Source: an uncultured virus (IMG/VR IMGVR_UViG_3300025887_000015)
Taxonomy: Duplodnaviria; Heunggongvirae; Uroviricota; Caudoviricetes
Direction: 5' to 3' (one strand)
Virus record (IMG/VR): IMGVR_UViG_3300025887_000015
Coordinates: 58,606 to 78,605 of that record
DNA length: 20,000 nucleotides
Under the pieces are notes generated by a model that saw nothing but the letters and a program-made list of their open reading frames with translations, did not search any database and was not told where the DNA came from. How positions within the stretch are numbered: position 1 is the first letter of the stretch; every line of letters begins with the position of its first letter. Made by a program: the position numbers and the translations under genes. Shown one piece after another: positions 1 to 17,912 of this stretch.

Positions 1-110
1 ACCATGGGTTAATCGATGACGAAGTAATTGTCTTGTCTTATATGGATAAGAGTTTTGAATACCATTTGGATAAAGATTTAAAAATAAATCAAATATATTT
101 GGTAATGTAA
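1..110 (+). CDS. 3' end of a hypothetical protein starting before the window
   Basis: Frame 3 is open from 3 to TAA at 108-110 (HGLIDDEVIVLSYMDKSFEYHLDKDLK...). Confidence 0.55.
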   Translation, partial: HGLIDDEVIVLSYMDKSFEYHLDKDLKINQIYLVM

Positions 111-162
111 TATATTATTCTTACCTTTGAAGTATAATCAAAAAAACAAAAAACAATAAACT

Positions 163-468
163 ATGGATTTAACATTCAACCCAGATGCGAAAGCACAAAG
201 AACCAAAGAAGCGTATAATAATGCGTTATCTGAAATCTCAGATAATTTAAAAAACGGAAACAAAATAACACACCTTTATATTGATAAAGAGGTTGCTGCT
301 GATGTTAGAAGTATGCTCAATGATGAGTTTAAGCGTCAAGGCAAAGAGGATAATTTCAATTGGGGTGTAGTGAGACGTTCACGCAATGAGTTTAGTCGTC
401 AAATGCAAGATTTCACTGGTGAAACTATTGGTGACCAAAAACATTATAAACTATGTTATAGTAATTAA
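163..468 (+). CDS. Hypothetical phage protein
   Basis: 101 aa ORF with own promoter and A-rich leader. Confidence 0.8.
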   Translation: MDLTFNPDAKAQRTKEAYNNALSEISDNLKNGNKITHLYIDKEVAADVRSMLNDEFKRQGKEDNFNWGVVRRSRNEFSRQMQDFTGETIGDQKHYKLCYSN

Positions 469-544
469 TTGTAAGCGATTAATTATTTAAAAAAACCCTA
501 TCATTTATTTGGTAGGGTTATTTTTTTTTCTTATCTTTGTTATA

Positions 545-597
545 ACAAAGGGCCTGACCTAACAAGTCGGAAGAGTAGACTCCAACCTACCTTATAT
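545..597 (+). ncRNA. Repeated small RNA, copy 1
   Basis: Promoter TATCTTTG 532-539; core GGAAGAGTAGACTCCAACCTAC 569-590; no ORF; ends approximate. Confidence 0.65.
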
Positions 598-743
598 TTA
601 AGTTTTCATAAAATAAATGTTAAAGTTCTTGGATATTAAAAAGTTTCATTATGTTGTAAATTTACCTGGTTTTATTTGGTTAGTATATAATAAAGTCTTA
701 TATTTGTACTGTAATCAATATTTAATAATCAAAACCAAAACAA

Positions 744-1490
744 ATGAAAAATTTATTCCAAGAAACAAAGTTATTTTTATCACAAGATTATGACTTATTT
801 AAATTCTTTAACTTCAATAGAGAGGCAGACCAAAACCATGTTAATAGATTAGTTGAATCGATTAAGCGTTGGGGTTTTGTTAGTTGTGTTACAGTTATTA
901 AAACTGATGCTATTGATGGTGTAATGTCTTATTATATTTTAGATGGTCAACATAGATTTTTAGCTGCTAAAATTTTGAACATTCCCTTCAAGTTTGATGT
1001 TGTTGAGATAGCTACTACCTTAGAGTTGGCAAACTACCTAGCAGACGTTAATAATTGTGCAAAAGCGTGGGGGACAAATCAATTCCTTAATATATGGTCA
1101 AAATTAAATATTTCAGAATACGTTAAATTATTAAAAGTTCAAACTGAAACTAAAATTCAAATCACACCATTAGTTAAGGCTTATAGTGGTAAAAGTTCAA
1201 TGAATGAATTTCGTAAAGGTACTATGACTTTTACTGATGAAGCCAAGTCAGACCAAATTATTAAGCAAATTGTAGACTTGAATGATTATTTACCTAGTAA
1301 AGCATTTTGTAGACGTGCTATTATTGATATAATGAATGATAAAGACTATAACCATAAAATAATTAAGCCATTAATTATTAGACGTGCTGAAAGTGTTGGG
1401 TTTACTGAAAATGAAAATGACCTTAGAAATGAATTAAAGATGTTAGTTCGTGCATCTAAAGTTAACGCACCTAAATTAAAAGTTGCGTAA
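744..1490 (+). CDS. ParB/Srx-like N-terminal domain protein (DGQHR motif)
   Basis: NR..HVNRLVESI..GF...YILDGQHRFLAAK is the ParB-N/DGQHR signature. Confidence 0.8.
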   Translation: MKNLFQETKLFLSQDYDLFKFFNFNREADQNHVNRLVESIKRWGFVSCVTVIKTDAIDGVMSYYILDGQHRFLAAKILNIPFKFDVVEIATTLELANYLADVNNCAKAWGTNQFLNIWSKLNISEYVKLLKVQTETKIQITPLVKAYSGKSSMNEFRKGTMTFTDEAKSDQIIKQIVDLNDYLPSKAFCRRAIIDIMNDKDYNHKIIKPLIIRRAESVGFTENENDLRNELKMLVRASKVNAPKLKVA

Positions 1491-1577
1491 ATTTATAAAA
1501 TAACCTGGTAATTATTTTGCTAGGTTATTTTTTATCTTATATTTGTAATATCAATATTTAATCAAAACAAACTAATT

Positions 1578-2507
1578 ATGTTAACAGAAAATCAAGTAAA
1601 AGTTCAAATCATTAGAAACCCTAATGTAAAGTCAAATGAGTTAGATTTTAATTTTGAAGTGCCACAAAAGTTAGGTGGACTTAAACGTGAAATAACGGTC
1701 AAGCGTAACAACTTATTAAAGTTAGCTAAGTCAAGTACTTATACTCACATAACATTAAGTAAAAAGTTAGGAATCACATCTTATGCTTTAAGTCGTTTCT
1801 TAGATAAAGAAACCAACAACCCTATTAATGCAGAAGCTATTTATACTGCTATCTATTCAGTAGATTTGAATGAGTTAAAAGAAGAAACCAAAACTCGTTT
1901 CAATGGTGTTAATAAAATGAATATACGATATAAGTTTATCGAAGCTATTGGAAAAACTAAAAAAACACAAGGTAGGTTTTTTAGCTTACCAAGTGAAACT
2001 TGTGCCTTTGAAAATGAATTGAATATTAATTTAGAAAATAAGTTTCATTACATCGGTGCTGAATGTAAAAAAGATATTTTTGAACAAGCATTACAAACCA
2101 TTGCAAAGTATAAACTTTCAATGCAGTTACATTTAGGTAAAGCAAGTGAAGTTTTAATGTCAAAAAAGAATGATTTTTTTGCTCATATATTTGCTGATTA
2201 TTGTGGTACATTTCCAAGCTACGAAGCTGAAATTAGACATATTTTTACTAATAATTTAGTGATACGTGGTGGGTTAATTGGTTTAACTTTCACTACTCGT
2301 GAAGCAAACACTAAAAATCAAACGTCTATTGAGTATCATAAATCGATTTTAGCTGAAATAGGCTCTAAAGATACACCAACTACAATTGGTGGTATTAGAT
2401 TGAAGTTATTGTCTTTTATGAGTAACAACTATAAATTTGAGGAAGTAATTGATTATTCTGATGATGGTTCACACATGGTATTTGTTTTGATAAAAAGAGT
2501 GAAATAA
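1578..2507 (+). CDS. HTH domain fused to a class I SAM-methyltransferase-like domain
   Basis: HTH-like LSKKLGITSYALSRFL; C-terminal Rossmann-like pattern YIGAE...HIFADYCG...GGLIGLTF; recognised by eye. Confidence 0.55.
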   Translation: MLTENQVKVQIIRNPNVKSNELDFNFEVPQKLGGLKREITVKRNNLLKLAKSSTYTHITLSKKLGITSYALSRFLDKETNNPINAEAIYTAIYSVDLNELKEETKTRFNGVNKMNIRYKFIEAIGKTKKTQGRFFSLPSETCAFENELNINLENKFHYIGAECKKDIFEQALQTIAKYKLSMQLHLGKASEVLMSKKNDFFAHIFADYCGTFPSYEAEIRHIFTNNLVIRGGLIGLTFTTREANTKNQTSIEYHKSILAEIGSKDTPTTIGGIRLKLLSFMSNNYKFEEVIDYSDDGSHMVFVLIKRVK

Positions 2508-2520
2508 AATAACTCTTTAT

Positions 2521-2551
2521 AAATGGCCTCTAAATTTAGAGGCCATTTTTT
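2521..2551 (+). terminator. Intrinsic terminator
   Basis: Inverted repeat AAATGGCCTCTAAA/TTTAGAGGCCATTT followed by T-run. Confidence 0.85.
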
Positions 2552-2619
2552 ATGTTAAATAATTAGGTTTATATATAATAAAGTCTTATATTTGTGCTGT
2601 AATCAAAACAACAAGACAA

Positions 2620-2934
2620 ATGAAAAGAGTACAAAACCTTAAAGATGTAAATATTACTCTTGAAGACTTATACAAGGGTAAAAAACAAATAAATTTACAC
2701 TTGTCTGATAAACCTTATACGTTTTCACTTATCTTAAAAGATAGACATGGTGTAGATTGTAAATTGAGTTCCTTTGGTGCAAATCTTTATGTTAGAACCA
2801 ATAAGGGGTTAAATTATGAAAGATATCAATCATTAAGTAGTTTACAATCTGCAATTAAACGTGCAATCAAAACTAAAGTTGAAACTGAGGGCGAAATCAC
2901 ATTTTCATTATCTGATGAAGTTTATACATTTTAA
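2620..2934 (+). CDS. Hypothetical phage protein
   Basis: 104 aa ORF with own promoter at 2587. Confidence 0.8.
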   Translation: MKRVQNLKDVNITLEDLYKGKKQINLHLSDKPYTFSLILKDRHGVDCKLSSFGANLYVRTNKGLNYERYQSLSSLQSAIKRAIKTKVETEGEITFSLSDEVYTF

Positions 2935-2991
2935 TTAGGATAAATCAAATATATTTCTTATCTTTGTAATGTAATCAAAACAAAACAACAA

Positions 2992-3141
2992 ATGACTTAT
3001 CAAGACAAATTTAATGCACGTATCAATTTAAGAGCTGAACTATTAGCAATCCAATTATCAAAAGTTAATGGTATTGTTAGTAATAGTATCAAAGCAATGT
3101 ATGGAATCCATACTAACAAACTTTTATATAATAAAATATAA
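2992..3141 (+). CDS. Small hypothetical protein (49 aa, not in ORF track)
   Basis: MTYQDKFNARINLRAELLAIQLSK...; promoter 2959 and standard AATCAAAAC leader. Confidence 0.7.
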   Translation: MTYQDKFNARINLRAELLAIQLSKVNGIVSNSIKAMYGIHTNKLLYNKI

Positions 3142-3144
3142 TTT

Positions 3145-3256
3145 AAAATAACCCATCATTTATTTGGTGGGTTCATTTTTTTTTCTTATCTTTGTATTGG
3201 TTGACGGGCGCACTACGGTGGGAAGAGTAGACTCCAACCTACGCTTATTTTTTTTT
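3145..3256 (+). repeat. 112-bp exact direct repeat, copy A (terminator-promoter-sRNA module)
   Basis: Identical to 5146-5257. Confidence 0.95.
3200..3252 (+). ncRNA. Repeated small RNA, copy 2
   Basis: Promoter 3187-3194; CAC-TACG-GTG (cUACGg tetraloop) hairpin; core 3221-3242; T-run. Confidence 0.7.
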
Positions 3257-3332
3257 TGAAAATAAATGTTAAATTATTTGGTGGGTATATAATATTGTCT
3301 TATATTTGTAGTGAACAAATAATCAAAACAAC

Positions 3333-3758
3333 ATGACTACTCAAGCAAACATCATTTCAAGCGAAGCCCTTTATAACGTTATCAAGCGTGAAAAGAATAA
3401 TAAGGGTGCTACTTTTACTATCAAGTCTAAATTGACTGGTAAGGACTTCACCTATAAGATTGCTCGTAGTGAGTTTAAAGGACGTTGGTACACTCAAGTA
3501 TATGTTGAAACAGGATATATGCAATTCACTCATTTAGGTTCTTACTTCAAAGGTAAGATATATAAGCGTGGTGGTGAAATTACTTCACCAAGTGCAATAG
3601 GAATTAGTTTCGTGTTGTTTAAGGTAGAAAATAGACATTTTGAGTGGATTGACCGTCAAGCTGAAATAATGCACTTAGGTTCGTGCTTATGTTGTGGTAA
3701 GACGTTAACTGATGCTCAAAGTATAGAGCGTGGACTTGGCCCAGTATGTGCTGGGTAA
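3333..3758 (+). CDS. DUF6011-like zinc-binding phage protein
   Basis: C-terminal GSCLCCGKTLTDAQSIERGLGPVC. Confidence 0.8.
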   Translation: MTTQANIISSEALYNVIKREKNNKGATFTIKSKLTGKDFTYKIARSEFKGRWYTQVYVETGYMQFTHLGSYFKGKIYKRGGEITSPSAIGISFVLFKVENRHFEWIDRQAEIMHLGSCLCCGKTLTDAQSIERGLGPVCAG

Positions 3759-3840
3759 GTCCTTAAAAAAAAAGTGTTAAAATTTTTGGTAGTTATATAA
3801 TAAAGCCTTATATTTGTACTGTAATCAAAACAACAACTAC

Positions 3841-4560
3841 ATGAAAGATATTAAATACATTTATAGATTAGGTAATACGGTTAACGTATTAAATGCTAAA
3901 GTTTCACAAAACAGTAAGATTGGAATTGGTTATATTATTCAAACATACCATTATTCAATTGAACAAGTTATGGATGCTAGTTTAGTAAATGATAAAGCAA
4001 GTTGTTTAGATTGTCCTTTATCATATAACCAAAACAATGGTAAAAGTGGTGGGTGTTATACTCACAAAGGTATGCAATTAATGGGTTTAAAATCTATGTT
4101 AAGGGGTCTTAATAGAAAATTAAATACTATTAATGAATTTAAACAAAGTGACTTTTTTAACTTTGTTAATAAAGTTAAAGCAACTAACAAAGTAGATTTA
4201 GTTCGTTTTGGTGCTTATGGTGAACCAATTCTATTACCTTTAAAAGTTGTTGAAGTCTTAAGTGGTTTAAGTCAAAAAACTACAGGATATACTCATCAAT
4301 GGAATAAACCACAATACCAAAAATATAATAAGTTTTTTATGTCGTCAACACATACTGAAACAGAACGTCAACAAGCTAAAGATTTAGGTTACCGTTCGTT
4401 TTTTGTTGCTACAAGTGAAATAAAGGGTTTTAAGCCACAAAATGCAGTTAATTGTCCAGCAAGTAAGGAAAGTTCTAAAAACCTTTCATGCATCGCTTGT
4501 GGGCTTTGTAATGGTACTAGCAGAGGTATTAAAAAAGATATCTATATAATGAAACATTAA
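3841..4560 (+). CDS. Cys-rich, gp88-like / radical-SAM-like putative Fe-S protein
   Basis: CxxC...CY, RFGAYGEP, GYTHQW, CPA...CxxCxxC; the track's TTG start at 3814 lies in the promoter, so ATG 3841 is preferred. Confidence 0.6.
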   Translation: MKDIKYIYRLGNTVNVLNAKVSQNSKIGIGYIIQTYHYSIEQVMDASLVNDKASCLDCPLSYNQNNGKSGGCYTHKGMQLMGLKSMLRGLNRKLNTINEFKQSDFFNFVNKVKATNKVDLVRFGAYGEPILLPLKVVEVLSGLSQKTTGYTHQWNKPQYQKYNKFFMSSTHTETERQQAKDLGYRSFFVATSEIKGFKPQNAVNCPASKESSKNLSCIACGLCNGTSRGIKKDIYIMKH

Positions 4561-4618
4561 TTTAAAAAAGACTACCATTAATTTGGTAGTCTTATTTTTT
4601 TGTCTTATATTTGTAGTA

Positions 4619-4672
4619 TACAAAGCAACCGAGCAAAGGTGAGAAGTAGACTCCACCCTACGCTTATTTTTT
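4619..4672 (+). ncRNA. Repeated small RNA, copy 3 (divergent)
   Basis: Promoter 4606-4613; variant core GAGAAGTAGACTCCACCCTAC 4641-4661; AAGC/GCTT closing stem; T-run. Confidence 0.65.
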
Positions 4673-4752
4673 TTTATAAATTAAATATTAAATTATTTGG
4701 TAGTTAAATAATAAAGTCTTATATTTGTACTGTAATCAAAACAACAGAAATT

Positions 4753-5136
4753 ATGTCAAAAGAAATCGAATTAAAATTATCAAATGAGAAGTGTATTGAA
4801 ATTTTCTTTAATGCTTTGTGTAATGGCTTAGGTTACATTGGTGGTTATGGTATAACCATTGATTGTGATAGAGATGCATATAATGATGCTAGAGCCAAGT
4901 TAGATGTCCCAGCATTTGAGGACGTGTTAATTCAAGTATTAAAAGATGGTGGTGTTATTCAATTCGTGGATAACGAAGGTGAAGAAACTACTGATGTTAC
5001 CTTAGATATGGTTTTAGAACGTATACCACAAGTTGAATTAGATACTCTAATGGAGATGATTCAAGAACAAGATGATGCGTGTACTGCTGATATCATTCTA
5101 CAAACTGTTATCTACGGAGAAGTTCAATTCGGATAA
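4753..5136 (+). CDS. Acidic hypothetical phage protein
   Basis: 127 aa; C-terminal DACTADIILQTVIYGEVQFG; own promoter. Confidence 0.85.
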   Translation: MSKEIELKLSNEKCIEIFFNALCNGLGYIGGYGITIDCDRDAYNDARAKLDVPAFEDVLIQVLKDGGVIQFVDNEGEETTDVTLDMVLERIPQVELDTLMEMIQEQDDACTADIILQTVIYGEVQFG

Positions 5137-5145
5137 AATTAATTA

Positions 5146-5257
5146 AAAATAACCCATCATTTATTTGGTGGGTTCATTTTTTTTTCTTATCTTTGTATTG
5201 GTTGACGGGCGCACTACGGTGGGAAGAGTAGACTCCAACCTACGCTTATTTTTTTTT
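5146..5257 (+). repeat. 112-bp exact direct repeat, copy B
   Basis: Identical to 3145-3256, offset 2001 bp. Confidence 0.95.
5201..5253 (+). ncRNA. Repeated small RNA, copy 4 (identical to copy 2)
   Basis: Promoter 5188-5195; core 5222-5243. Confidence 0.7.
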
Positions 5258-5351
5258 ATAGCAAATGTTAAAATTTTAAAATAAGTGTTAAAATATTAGG
5301 ATGGTATATAATAAAGTCTTATATTTGTATTATAATCAAAACAACAACATT

Positions 5352-5750
5352 ATGACAACTACACAAACAGAACTTTCAGAAGCTTATTCAATGTTAAGTG
5401 ATATGCATAAAGATGCATATGGTTTCAGATGTAGAACTTATAGAAGTGACCTTACCATTAAGGAAATTCATGAAGAATTTGATAAACTTCAAGTTGTTAT
5501 TAAGCGTAACATAGAGGAAGAACGTCTTTGGGAGATGGAGCAAGAGATGGCTTTTAAGTTACTTTTACAGAAGACTATTCAGTTAGGTGCTGGAGATGAA
5601 CAAACAGCTCTTAGATGGATTGTAGAGGGTGAAATTGAAGACACTAGAGACTACTTTGAGATTGAGAGTTTCTTATATCGTTATGGTATGATGCATACCG
5701 AATATGGTAGGATTATTAAGCAAAGAATTATTCATATGTTTTGTAAATAA
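5352..5750 (+). CDS. Hypothetical phage protein (SDMHKDAYGFR motif)
   Basis: Start moved to ATG 5352, downstream of promoter 5320. Confidence 0.8.
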   Translation: MTTTQTELSEAYSMLSDMHKDAYGFRCRTYRSDLTIKEIHEEFDKLQVVIKRNIEEERLWEMEQEMAFKLLLQKTIQLGAGDEQTALRWIVEGEIEDTRDYFEIESFLYRYGMMHTEYGRIIKQRIIHMFCK

Positions 5751-5804
5751 TTTGGTAGTTTCATTTATTTTTCTTATCTTTGTATTAATCAAAACAATAA
5801 CATT

Positions 5805-6023
5805 ATGAATTTACAAAAACACATTTGGGAAGGTTGGACTGTTCAAAACTTCATTGACGATTTATCTATACAATTAGATATAATTCAAACAGGTAAGTCG
5901 TGGAAAGACCCTTTAACTTCAAAAAAGGAATTAAAAGTATGGTGCATGGATAATCAACCTTATTATAAGAAATATGTACCTGAAGTGGTAAATTATTTTG
6001 CCAAGAAGTATAACTTAAAATAA
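5805..6023 (+). CDS. Hypothetical phage protein
   Basis: 72 aa with own promoter. Confidence 0.8.
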   Translation: MNLQKHIWEGWTVQNFIDDLSIQLDIIQTGKSWKDPLTSKKELKVWCMDNQPYYKKYVPEVVNYFAKKYNLK

Positions 6024-6099
6024 TCATAAATAAGACTATCATATATTTGGTAGTCTTATTTATTTTTCTTATCTTTGTATTAATCAAAACAACAAGACA

Positions 6100-6390
6100 A
6101 TGAAATATCACGATGTTAAACAATTACAGGCTTTACATGGTCGAAAAGAATTACAAGATAGTATCAATGATGCTTCAATCTGGAAATTTGAAGGTAGTGC
6201 TGGACGTAGAGCAATGGATGCTTTAAGAAGCGGTGAATGTATGTTACCAAAAAAACAAACCTTTGACTATTATGGTAATCCATTACCGTCAAGAGATTGG
6301 CTTAAAGCTGGAACTAAAGGTAGTTATAAAAATTCATTAAACTTTTGGAAGAAAGTTGCAGACGGTGAAATAGATTTATATGATGAATAA
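6100..6390 (+). CDS. Hypothetical phage protein
   Basis: 96 aa with own promoter. Confidence 0.8.
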   Translation: MKYHDVKQLQALHGRKELQDSINDASIWKFEGSAGRRAMDALRSGECMLPKKQTFDYYGNPLPSRDWLKAGTKGSYKNSLNFWKKVADGEIDLYDE

Positions 6391-6394
6391 GACA

Positions 6395-6667
6395 ATGAAT
6401 AAACCAAAATTTTATATCGTATGGATTGAAGGAATATCACCAAGATTTGGTGAGAAGTTAAAACAATTCATTGAGAGTCATCGTCAAGAAGATTATATTA
6501 TAACCACTCGGATGACTAAAGCTATGCGGGTGAAACCACAAGACGTTGAGGAAGTAAAAGAGAAGTTGAAGAATATTGGAGTATCTAACTGGTGCTTAGA
6601 AAATCCTCACACTTTTTTCCCAACAAGATATGCACCATCTGGTACCATATTCAAGTCTGAAAAATAA
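6395..6667 (+). CDS. Hypothetical phage protein
   Basis: Follows the upstream gene directly; start could be 6380, 6383 or 6395. Confidence 0.7.
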   Translation: MNKPKFYIVWIEGISPRFGEKLKQFIESHRQEDYIITTRMTKAMRVKPQDVEEVKEKLKNIGVSNWCLENPHTFFPTRYAPSGTIFKSEK

Positions 6668-6700
6668 CCAATACACAAATGTGTACACTAAAATATTATT

Positions 6701-6853
6701 ATGGAAAAAGAACGTTTAGAATACCTAAGACAAGAACTAAGAGCTGAACGCATTAGCTACGGAGAATTACAAGAACTTCAATCTTTAGTAGATTTTATTG
6801 AAGATGGTGATGTTGAATTGTTAGAAGCTGCGGGAGTTCCTGAATTTAATTAA
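6701..6853 (+). CDS. Small acidic hypothetical protein (50 aa, not in ORF track)
   Basis: MEKERLEYLRQELRAERISYGELQELQSL...LLEAAGVPEFN. Confidence 0.8.
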   Translation: MEKERLEYLRQELRAERISYGELQELQSLVDFIEDGDVELLEAAGVPEFN

Positions 6854-6897
6854 AAATAAATTTGGATAATTAAAATATAAGTTGTATATTTGTAATA

Positions 6898-7215
6898 TCA
6901 AAAAGAGCTGAGAAATCCACAGCCACCACGATGAAAGGAAGTAACGGTAAAAAATAAAAGAGGTGACCATATAAAAGTGGAAAGGTTTTAAATTAATTCC
7001 AGCTGTCACAAACCGTCAACACCGAAAGGAAAAAGACAAAGGAAAGATATTAGATTAACCTAGAGAACCCATGGGAGTTACGGTTACTAATAGAATGGGT
7101 GAGATAAACAAAGCCTCTTTTTTAATTAAAGTGTACCGTTAGTGAATGTATGCACTTAAAATTTACGAGCATTGCGAATTAAAAGCCATCTGTTAATTAC
7201 AGATGGCTTTTTTTT
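6898..7215 (+). ncRNA. Candidate ~300-nt structured non-coding RNA
   Basis: Own promoter 6885-6892, terminator 7181-7215, no sizeable sense ORF, nested long-range stems. Confidence 0.6.
7181..7215 (+). terminator. Intrinsic terminator
   Basis: AAAAGCCATCTGT...ACAGATGGCTTTT plus T-run. Confidence 0.9.
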
Positions 7216-7285
7216 ATGTTAAAATATTTGGTGGTTATATAATAAAGCCTTATATTTGCATATGTTTAATTAAATACTTTATATT

Positions 7286-7789
7286 ATGAATTTACAATTA
7301 AAGAATGTACACTTCTCTGAAAGACTTTCACAAGAAACAAACGCCTTTGCTGCCGATGTATTTTTCAACGGTAAAAAAGTAGGTTATGCTGAAAATGATG
7401 GTCATGGTGGTTGTACTAATGTTGGTGCTTATCCTGAAAAAAGAGATGAGTTTAATGAGGCGTGTGAATATGCCAAGAGTTTACCTGAAATAGTTTATGA
7501 AGGTAGTGGTGGGTTAGATGGGTTTTCTATTAACTCCAATATGGAAAATCAGGTAGATGAGTTATTCAATAAATGGTTAGATAAGAAAGAAATTCAACAA
7601 AATTCAGCTAAAGGTATCTTTTATGAAAAACCTAATGGTACTAGAGCAACAACTTATTGGAAAGGGTGGTCAATTAAGAAGTTATTAGAAACGCCACAAG
7701 GTCGTGCCACAGTTAAAAATGCTATTAATAGACTTCAAAAAGATGGAAATACCATCCTGAATACCAATTTAGGGGTACTTTTAAGCTAA
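7286..7789 (+). CDS. Hypothetical phage protein (SxET..F.A...NGKK.G.A.NDGHGG motif)
   Basis: 167 aa with own promoter. Confidence 0.85.
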   Translation: MNLQLKNVHFSERLSQETNAFAADVFFNGKKVGYAENDGHGGCTNVGAYPEKRDEFNEACEYAKSLPEIVYEGSGGLDGFSINSNMENQVDELFNKWLDKKEIQQNSAKGIFYEKPNGTRATTYWKGWSIKKLLETPQGRATVKNAINRLQKDGNTILNTNLGVLLS

Positions 7790-7811
7790 ATTAGCCCTAT
7801 TTTAACGAAAT

Positions 7812-16139: not shown

Positions 16140-16195
16140 ACAAAGGGCCTGACCTAACAAATCGGAAGAGTAGACTCCAACCTACCTTTATTTTT
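16140..16195 (+). ncRNA. Repeated small RNA, copy 5 (near-identical to copy 1)
   Basis: Promoter 16127-16134; core 16164-16185; antiparallel to flanking genes. Confidence 0.65.
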
Positions 16196-16217
16196 CCTTA
16201 CTATATTTCAATAAAAA

Positions 16218-17729: not shown

Positions 17730-17800
17730 GACAATGAGGAAAGACTCTAAGGGCGGTGACTAACAATCAGGAAGAGTAGACTCCAACCTACCTTATACTC
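17730..17800 (+). ncRNA. Repeated small RNA, copy 6 (5'-extended)
   Basis: Promoter 17717-17724; extra GAG-GAAAGA-CTC hairpin; core 17770-17791; TAAGG/CCTTA closing stem. Confidence 0.65.
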
Positions 17801-17912
17801 AAATTTTTTATTACGCTTGCTACCTATGGCCCCGTAAAGATACAACATTTTTTTTTAATATCCTAATGAAATAAATTTTTTTTATCGAATAATTTATTGT
17901 ATATTTGTATCA

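Follow-up and report, generated by a model that had tools for sequence, protein, structure and literature searches.

Locus and transcription unit

The stretch of DNA analysed here, called the window, comprises 20,000 nucleotides (nt) from an uncultured virus of the Caudoviricetes and corresponds to bases 58606-78605 of the 78,605-base virus record IMGVR_UViG_3300025887_000015. At ~6898-7215 of the window, on the + strand, lies what is very probably a stand-alone gene for a structured non-coding RNA of ~320 nt that is a member of a family of phage RNAs. An initial annotation, made from the sequence alone, had proposed a multi-stem RNA of about 300 nt with its own promoter and terminator at this place. 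To our knowledge, a function is known for few non-coding RNAs of phages, and hardly any come from phages of Bacteroidota-like hosts. The CheckV completeness of the record is 22%, and its genes include those for a major head protein, a head maturation protease, a large terminase and a thymidylate synthase. The region is copied identically in a 119-kb viral contig, and the sequencing runs that contain it are mostly labelled as freshwater metagenomes. The RNA is single-copy in the 78.6-kb record. The locus is laid out as follows.

6861-6892, + strand: promoter of the phage's recurrent type (TTTGG, 19-nt spacer, TATATTTG)
6898-6955, + strand: 5' accessory domain, with hairpin H1 (6907-6912/6918-6923), CACCACGAT (6924-6932) and TAACGGTA (6942-6949)
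6956-7121, + strand: core domain, closed by helix P1 and containing stem S2, the GTGAC/GTCAC pairing, a GNRA hairpin (7015-7037) and a further hairpin (7067-7100)
7103-7113, + strand: conserved core tail GATAAACAAAG, common to the relatives
7129-7177, + strand: 3' module, a 7-bp stem (7129-7135/7151-7157) with the 15-nt loop CCGTTAGTGAATGTA (7136-7150), a linker and GAGCATTGCGA (7167-7177)
7181-7216, + strand: intrinsic terminator, a 13-bp stem (7181-7211) with a 5-nt loop, followed by a T run
7227-7258, + strand: separate promoter of the downstream gene, a pattern match that is conserved in relatives
7286-7789, + strand: gene for a 167-aa protein, with its own promoter at 7227-7258

The promoter and the terminator claimed by the initial annotation are thus both found. 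The design TTTGG-N(16-22)-TANNTTTG occurs at 21 sites in the window against 0.34 expected, and the sites before the RNA (6861-6892) and before the next gene (7227-7258) are both among them. We take this design to resemble the Bacteroidota -33/-7 consensus. From the promoter, a transcript start at about 6897-6900 is predicted. The same promoter architecture precedes the RNAs of relatives, and the letters of the terminator stem differ among them while the pairing is retained. The window RNA and five relatives share the same order: a unit running from promoter to terminator, and then a separately promoted gene.

The neighbouring protein genes carry a leader word, AATCAAAAC, which has 13 copies in the window against 0.66 expected. 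Its sites (e.g. 2601-2609, 3823-3831, 6082-6090) typically follow a promoter by a few bases and precede a start codon, and the word may serve this phage as a signal for translation or stability. None occurs between 6090 and 12361, and the RNA unit therefore lacks it, in agreement with the earlier claim that the leader is without the pattern of its neighbours. Three open reading frames (ORFs) of at least 20 aa touch 6890-7220: one of 62 aa on the - strand and two, of 23 and 28 aa, on the + strand. The sense ORFs are as tiny as had been stated, and none of the small ORFs of the stretch is conserved among the relatives; the 23-aa ORF ends after five codons in the closest one (locus L008).

Fold and pairings

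The + strand of 6898-7215 folds to -67.3 kcal/mol, against a mean of -52.9 (sd 4.7) for shuffled sequences (z -3.10; 0 of 100 as good). The fold of the - strand has a z of -2.64. The pairings listed in the initial annotation are all present where it had placed them, on the + strand:

6942-6949/7134-7141: outermost helix, TAACGGTA with TACCGTTA, present in the sequence
6956-6963/7114-7121: closing helix P1, AAAAGAGG with CCTCTTTT, 8 contiguous pairs
6963-6967/7005-7009: GTGAC with GTCAC, enclosing S2
6978-6982/6997-7001: stem S2, TGGAA with TTCCA, covarying
7015-7017/7035-7037: GNRA hairpin, GTC with GAC around CC-GAAA-GG (7022-7029)
7067-7072/7095-7100: hairpin, ACCCAT with ATGGGT

By our own estimate, a perfect 8-bp helix is expected ~0.8 times by chance within 318 nt. 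A single helix of this length is at chance level, so the case rests on the z-score and on comparative data. Two of the pairings gain in standing from the comparison: the second helix is P1 (6956-6963/7114-7121), which closes the core throughout the family, and TGGAA/TTCCA is the conserved and covarying stem S2. GTGAC/GTCAC and the GNRA hairpin are identical in the sole close relative, L008. The ACCCAT/ATGGGT hairpin is kept there as well, with a one-sided C-G to U-G change as its only difference.

The outermost helix overlaps the 3' hairpin: the two share 7134-7135, and CCGTTA sits in the hairpin loop. The helix is unchanged in L008 and has an uncompensated C-to-A change in another relative, L007. 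It is at best a 6-bp contact of the loop CCGTTA with TAACGG of the 5' domain, and it competes with the covarying 3' hairpin. RNAalifold, run on the window and L008, gave a pairing of 6900-6906 with 7116-7122. This was rejected as the main form of P1, since the family-wide anchor indicates 6956-6963, and is kept as a possible alternative pairing; the model energies of the two are -47.4 and -48.0 kcal/mol. Single-sequence thermodynamics gives probabilities of 0.00 for S2 and 0.03 for the 3' hairpin, though both covary. For this reason, thermodynamics was not used to choose helices.

Homologous RNAs

Relatives were found by way of the 167-aa protein encoded downstream. An alignment of 32 sequences (A2) led to 80 metagenome loci, out of 209 relatives, and to 36 viral loci. 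Comparison of the RNA with 121 loci by blastn and nhmmer gave homologous RNA in L008, L007 and L011. More distant loci have a smaller RNA in the gap that precedes the 167-aa gene; it shares the surroundings of S2 and the tail GATAAACAAAG. A scan with a core pattern returned seven stretches, of which three were new and real (L240, L245, L246), one was already known and three were chance matches in coding DNA. A model derived from the three shortest forms to represent the common core (R2) gives scores of 67-116 bits to 10 sequences, 9 of them distinct. Through it L012 was also found and, with a weak match (E 0.03), L017 and L019. The collection of homologues and the covariation test that had been proposed thus yielded homologous RNAs that covary in P1, in the stems S1 and S2, in hairpin P3 and in the 3' hairpin.

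In deposited and cultured phage genomes there is no DNA match to the RNA, to the whole window or to two core sequences. The 15-nt loop of the 3' module, searched alone, matches at least 113 stretches; among the matches listed, L186 (two copies) is the only real one and the rest are chance. The pattern of the 5' domain matches 46 stretches, of which the identical contig is the only real one. A strict pattern of the 3' module matches two viral contigs. Among 185,579 species genomes it has no real site, and one chance match lies in coding DNA of a bacterial metagenome-assembled genome.

The core domain and its family

The relatives reveal a modular build, not noticed in the initial annotation, in which the RNA is predicted to consist of a 5' domain, a core and a 3' hairpin module. 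Judged from sequence, the core belongs to an uncatalogued family of phage RNAs, with 12 distinct members found. The common form has the closing helix P1, an H-type pseudoknot made of S1 and S2, a variable hairpin P3 and an invariant purine-rich strand that ends in AAAG. Helix P1 begins with a G that precedes a 3-nt linker and a C that follows the AAAG tail. Over the 12 RNAs, the cognate flanks pair with a mean of 5.6 contiguous bp, against 2.1 in 132 non-cognate combinations, and in five RNAs, the window included, P1 is 8-9 bp long. A natural variant in a metatranscriptome run (C7117T, run X11) turns one G-C pair of P1 into G-U.

In the core alignment of nine distinct sequences (A9), 98.9% of 180 cells are paired, against 84.5% in shuffles, and sliding the partners leaves at most 46% of cells paired. 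All six pairs of the S1 hairpin have changes on both sides. The seven pairs of S2 are 100% paired in the nine sequences, with one double change, an AU/UA swap in L012. S2 is formed by the S1 loop and a strand that follows ~15 nt later, which is the geometry of an H-type pseudoknot. In most family members the TGGAA/TTCCA-type stem is one stem of this pseudoknot, and TGGAA/TTCCA of the window becomes GGGTA/TACCC in L008 and GGGAA/TTCCC in L017. P3 has double-sided changes in two of its five pairs and accommodates loops or inserts between 4 and ~70 nt long. The alignment was made against a model that contains S1 and P3, and does not contain S2 or P1.

The minimal core forms measure ~93 nt, and about 46 positions are invariant among eight sequences, many of them in junctions or loops. 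Two complete phage genomes that have terminal repeats (94 and 92 kb) each contain the common form a single time, and the core is single-copy in four of the five phage records searched, two of these complete. It is kept across phages in which the neighbouring protein is merely 40-50% identical. Just upstream of the core in L246 (~270-305) and L240 (~1090-1150) there are tRNA-like fragments with a T-arm-like GGTTCGAATCC, for which ARAGORN reports nothing.

The window RNA has P1, with 8 contiguous pairs, and S2 (6978-6982/6997-7001). In place of the full S1 it has GTGAC/GTCAC, nesting S2, and the middle of its core is filled by the GNRA hairpin and the hairpin at 7067-7100; part of 7085-7105 is similar to the inserts found in P3 of L007, L240 and L245. 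In the comparison with L008, the helices specific to this core are invariant or changed on one side only. Since model R2 misses the window and invariant strands are missing from it, the window RNA is filed as a divergent subtype and not as a standard member.

The accessory domains

The 5' domain is common to the window, L008 and L007 only, with a mean column identity of 88%. Its hairpin H1 is paired in 15 of 18 cells and two of its pairs change on both sides; with 52 of 500 shuffles equalling it, the covariation support is weak. L008 (2006-2148) and L007 (~199-342) carry a nearly identical multi-hairpin domain of ~143 nt, closed by TTCTCAG/CTGAGAA, which is inserted exactly between the 5' domain and P1. 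It does not occur in the window and has no match in Rfam.

The 3' module is represented by six copies in four distinct phage sequences: one in the window, one in L008, two in L007 and two in tandem in L011. One of the L007 copies is a short RNA on its own. The order is constant: a stem-loop, 16-18 nt, and then GAGCATTRCGA. The stem of 6-7 bp is paired in all 36 cells, with double-sided changes in three of its six pairs and a covariation score that none of 500 shuffles reaches. The 15-nt loop is identical in five of the six copies, and the sixth has one U-to-C change. An ATG in the loop opens frames of 4 to 24 codons across the six copies, one of which stops after four, and the invariant GCATTGCG is read in all three frames. 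Conservation of a motif that is read in three frames is conservation at the RNA level and not of a protein. With the small ORFs unconserved, the possibility of a conserved small coding frame, named in the initial annotation as a ground for giving up the RNA, finds no support at the sequence level. A model of the module (R1) scores the copies at 76-80 bits; by this model, 100 loci and the 78.6-kb record have no further or divergent copies. The module, as these copies present it, is an autonomous unit that occurs alone, appended or doubled.

In L011 (2301-2410) the duplication is head to tail with a period of 53 nt, and a terminator follows only the second copy. A module motif, AGCATTGCG, recurs at 1800-1828 of L017 in the hairpin loop (GGTC...GACC) of the divergent core RNA of L017 and L019.

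Strand and expression

The + strand is indicated by the promoter, the terminator, the G-U pairs and the C7117T variant; an invariant G-U in P3, other G-U pairs and this variant fit the + strand only. Contigs from three metatranscriptome runs (X10, X11, X13) cover the RNA. In X10, a contig spanning 6891-7123 has a depth of 24.6, against 2.5 on both flanking-gene contigs, and in X13 the contig at 6792-7169 is the sole one on a 3-kb stretch. These data are a hint that the RNA is transcribed in lake metatranscriptomes. The contig ends at 7123, 7169 and 7176 do not coincide, and RNA processing was dismissed as a reading of them.

Comparison with known RNAs

Comparison with Rfam 15 by cmscan, proposed in the initial annotation, gave no match in the window at the gathering score. 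At E<=10 there are 11 chance-level matches, the best of which lies mostly on the terminator and has 23.5 bits against a cut-off of 70. The comparison spans tmRNA, RNase P RNA, 6S, SRP RNA, T-box, riboswitches, small ribozymes and phage pRNA, and none of them is found. In L007, L008 and L011 the only Rfam matches are terminator-like leader matches elsewhere in the loci, and in L246 there are three chance matches, all outside the core. ARAGORN finds no tRNA or tmRNA in the window and none in nine related loci. With Rfam 15 and ARAGORN negative and with homologues that covary, the earlier inference of a structured phage RNA that is neither tmRNA nor RNase P RNA is upheld.

In H-type pseudoknot riboswitches and in the pistol ribozyme, a hairpin loop pairs with a downstream strand. 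The pairing of the S1 loop is alike in this respect, and the family core is an H-type pseudoknot closed by P1, with many invariant unpaired nucleotides and a minimal size of ~93 nt. It differs from the pseudoknot aptamers and ribozymes in being without any Rfam 15 match, and the window copy is a free-standing unit before a separately promoted gene.

A ToxI-like antitoxin consists of tandem repeats of ~34-36 nt just upstream of a ToxN/AbiQ-type toxin gene. There is no tandem repeat in 6700-7400, and the 167-aa protein is without a Pfam, PHROG or PADLOC family. RNA anti-CRISPRs are decoy RNAs of phages. The 3' module is similar to phage decoy RNAs in being a short, autonomous hairpin ended by a terminator, and it occurs alone, appended and doubled, as a titrating decoy would look. 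Unlike decoy RNAs, the module is seen in phage sequences only, and no host counterpart that it could mimic was found. Pseudo-ToxI is described, in the part of the source considered here, as a phage-borne mimic of a type III antitoxin (PMC3475682).

No description of the window RNA was found in full-text searching of the literature. A survey of viruses and phages proposed 10,006 candidate structured RNAs (Fremin, Bhatt and Kyrpides, 2023; PMC10690425). In the parts of the survey considered, its candidates are, like the RNAs described here, conserved and covarying intergenic RNA motifs from uncultured phages without known function. The five contig numbers searched for are absent from six of its supplementary files, a set that does not cover files 1, 2 and 4.

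Function

The RNA is non-coding, has no fixed downstream gene, forms its own unit, is single-copy, has no complementary target in the 78.6-kb record and carries an autonomous module, and a trans-acting RNA is favoured on these grounds. The best explanation as a whole, to which we give a probability of about 0.5, is a stand-alone gene for a composite structured RNA that would act in trans via a partner. The inferred trans action and binding of a partner, as a part of this explanation, are put forward tentatively. The phage would be an uncultured freshwater phage with promoters of Bacteroidota style. The RNA would be transcribed from the promoter type of the neighbouring small genes, which are presumably early, and would end at its own terminator. 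It would be a composite of a P1-closed family core, a 5' accessory domain and a 3' accessory hairpin module. The folded RNA may then act in trans, with a partner that recognises the invariant unpaired nucleotides. A phage or host protein ranks first as a candidate partner, for which the RNA might be a scaffold or a decoy, and the 3' module may be a separate binding or decoy unit. The RNA would work neither by coding nor by long antisense pairing. If the partner is a host protein or a defence component, the RNA would be a new RNA-based device of host takeover.

Several observations weigh against this explanation. Model R2 gives no hit at E<=1 in the window or in L008, and both are without CACTGAGCA and TGTGGATAGAAGG, which are invariant motifs of the common form. 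The pair CACTGAGCA and TGTGGATAGAAGGGATAAAC, which flanks P3 in the family, is also absent from both, and only GATAAACAAAG remains. The window RNA is assigned to the family by P1, S2, the sequence surrounding S2 and the tail. Its S1 is weak, with four pairs, two of them G-C (GACC/GGTT, 6965-6968/6984-6987). L008 is its sole close core relative, and there is consequently little or no covariation support for GTGAC/GTCAC, the GNRA hairpin and the 5' domain. The aligning model leans the pair counts of S1 and P3 towards structure. The metatranscriptome data consist of assembled contigs, which cannot prove transcription, rank genes or show ends, and in X11 the contig at 6910-7176 has a depth of 3.7, next to flanking values of 4.0 and 3.8. 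None of the contig ends reaches the terminator, and the X13 contig begins at 6792, upstream of the promoter. Finally, in L240, L245, L246 and L017 there is no terminator after the core, and an ORF starts 14-55 nt on.

This last arrangement also speaks for a cis-acting leader, that is, a riboswitch-like element, an attenuator or a put-like antiterminator that would control whether transcription stops at 7181-7211 or continues into the 167-aa gene and further. In six of the 12 distinct RNAs the core immediately precedes a gene of the 167-aa family, aptamers are usually built as a P1-closed pseudoknot in which many unpaired bases are invariant, and the layout of promoter, structured RNA and terminator resembles HK022 put. 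Riboswitches normally lie upstream of functionally related genes. The other six cores precede unrelated small ORFs or sit on the other strand, as in L012, where the core is on the strand opposite to the 167-aa gene; the ORFs after the core come from at least five unrelated families. In the window, the downstream gene has its own conserved promoter (7227-7258), which stands after the terminator and between the element and the gene. In X10 the RNA contig has a depth of 24.6, and the contig of the downstream gene one of 2.5. The 60-nt accessory module between P1 and the terminator leaves no obvious competition between the two. We regard a cis-acting leader as unlikely.

It is also improbable, judging from sequence comparison, that the core is a new class of catalytic or ligand-binding RNA, either a self-cleaving ribozyme or a free-standing aptamer, in which the pseudoknotted core would be active and the other domains peripheral. 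The small size of the minimal forms together with the number of invariant positions outside helices would suit such an RNA, as would the strong covariation of nested and pseudoknotted core helices, the tolerance of P3 inserts and of the 143-nt domain, and the single copy in most phage records searched. No Rfam model of a ribozyme or riboswitch matches, and the sequence gives no indication of a cleavage site, a ligand or a chemistry. The subtype in the window has lost two invariant motifs, which would be odd for an active site, and the contigs of the RNA runs have no shared internal end. On this account, the pseudoknotted core might be a new phage-specific class, catalytic or ligand-sensing and single-copy, of phages from ~92 kb to an estimated ~350 kb, and the window RNA a remodelled version with two extra recognition modules; we hold this to be just as improbable.

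Base pairing as a small RNA, in which the seed for a host or phage mRNA would be the invariant 15-nt loop or some other single strand that is conserved, is a still more doubtful account. The loop stays identical in five of six copies while the stem changes, the module ends in a terminator like trans-acting small RNAs, and in L007 it occurs alone. The 78.6-kb record, on the other side, is without a complement of the loop (<=2 mismatches), of GAGCATTGCGA (<=1 mismatch) or of the S2 region. One loop site with three mismatches in the window is at chance level, as 20 of 200 shuffles give at least two matches, and the strict module pattern found nothing real in the species genomes. That the stretch has no RNA function, and is a small-protein gene or a spacer with an incidental promoter, terminator and helices, is very improbable: the + strand ORFs of 8, 16 and 23 aa, the 62-aa GTG ORF on the - strand and the one 8-bp helix expected by chance stand against unconserved ORFs, conserved motifs read in three frames, covariation in four helices, a fold z of -3.1 and a core that outlasts the similarity of the neighbouring protein.

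The compact minimal form of the family, of ~93 nt, combines a conservation of ribozyme or aptamer grade with a pseudoknot supported by covariation, and is small enough for in-vitro tests. The window copy illustrates the evolution of an RNA by domain swap, insertion and appending, as seen in an insert of 143 nt, a 3' module that stands free or is doubled, and a remodelled S1.

Neighbouring genes and other elements

The + strand of window positions 1-7800 carries small genes in a row, the majority without a Pfam or PHROG function, and each of them is preceded by a copy of one promoter design. The protein encoded at 7286-7789 is conserved across many uncultured phages, with 41 homologues and 209 metagenome relatives, and has an invariant N-x-G-x-G-G-x-T stretch at residues 37-44. 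It has no family in Pfam, PHROG or PADLOC. None of the neighbouring proteins matches a defence or toxin family. Tblastn against deposited phage genomes gave three weak matches, all in unannotated records of uncultured huge phages. The AlphaFold model is confident (predicted local distance difference test 92). Foldseek against the PDB finds nothing at E<=0.001, and VIA-align, searched widely, has a best Z of 4.6; the fold search is uninformative about the RNA. Pfam results for ORFs that surround the core in other phages are limited to DUF3846, NUMOD4 and one helicase-like match.

A second, dispersed family of short non-coding units lies at 548-606, 3134-3256, 4553-4675, 5135-5257, 16143-16201 and 17749-17807 (repeat families D7 and D14). 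Each unit follows a promoter copy and has a constant part with GAGTAGACTCCAACCTAC. The units share the phage and the promoter type with the RNA described here, whereas they are unrelated to it in sequence, differ in fold and occur in six copies against one. Cassettes of a terminator and a promoter occur at 490-526, 3145-3181, 4564-4600, 5146-5182 and 6028-6064 (repeat families D1, D9 and D10). In these, the terminator loop carries the TTTGG of the next promoter, and the T run is the spacer before TANNTTTG.

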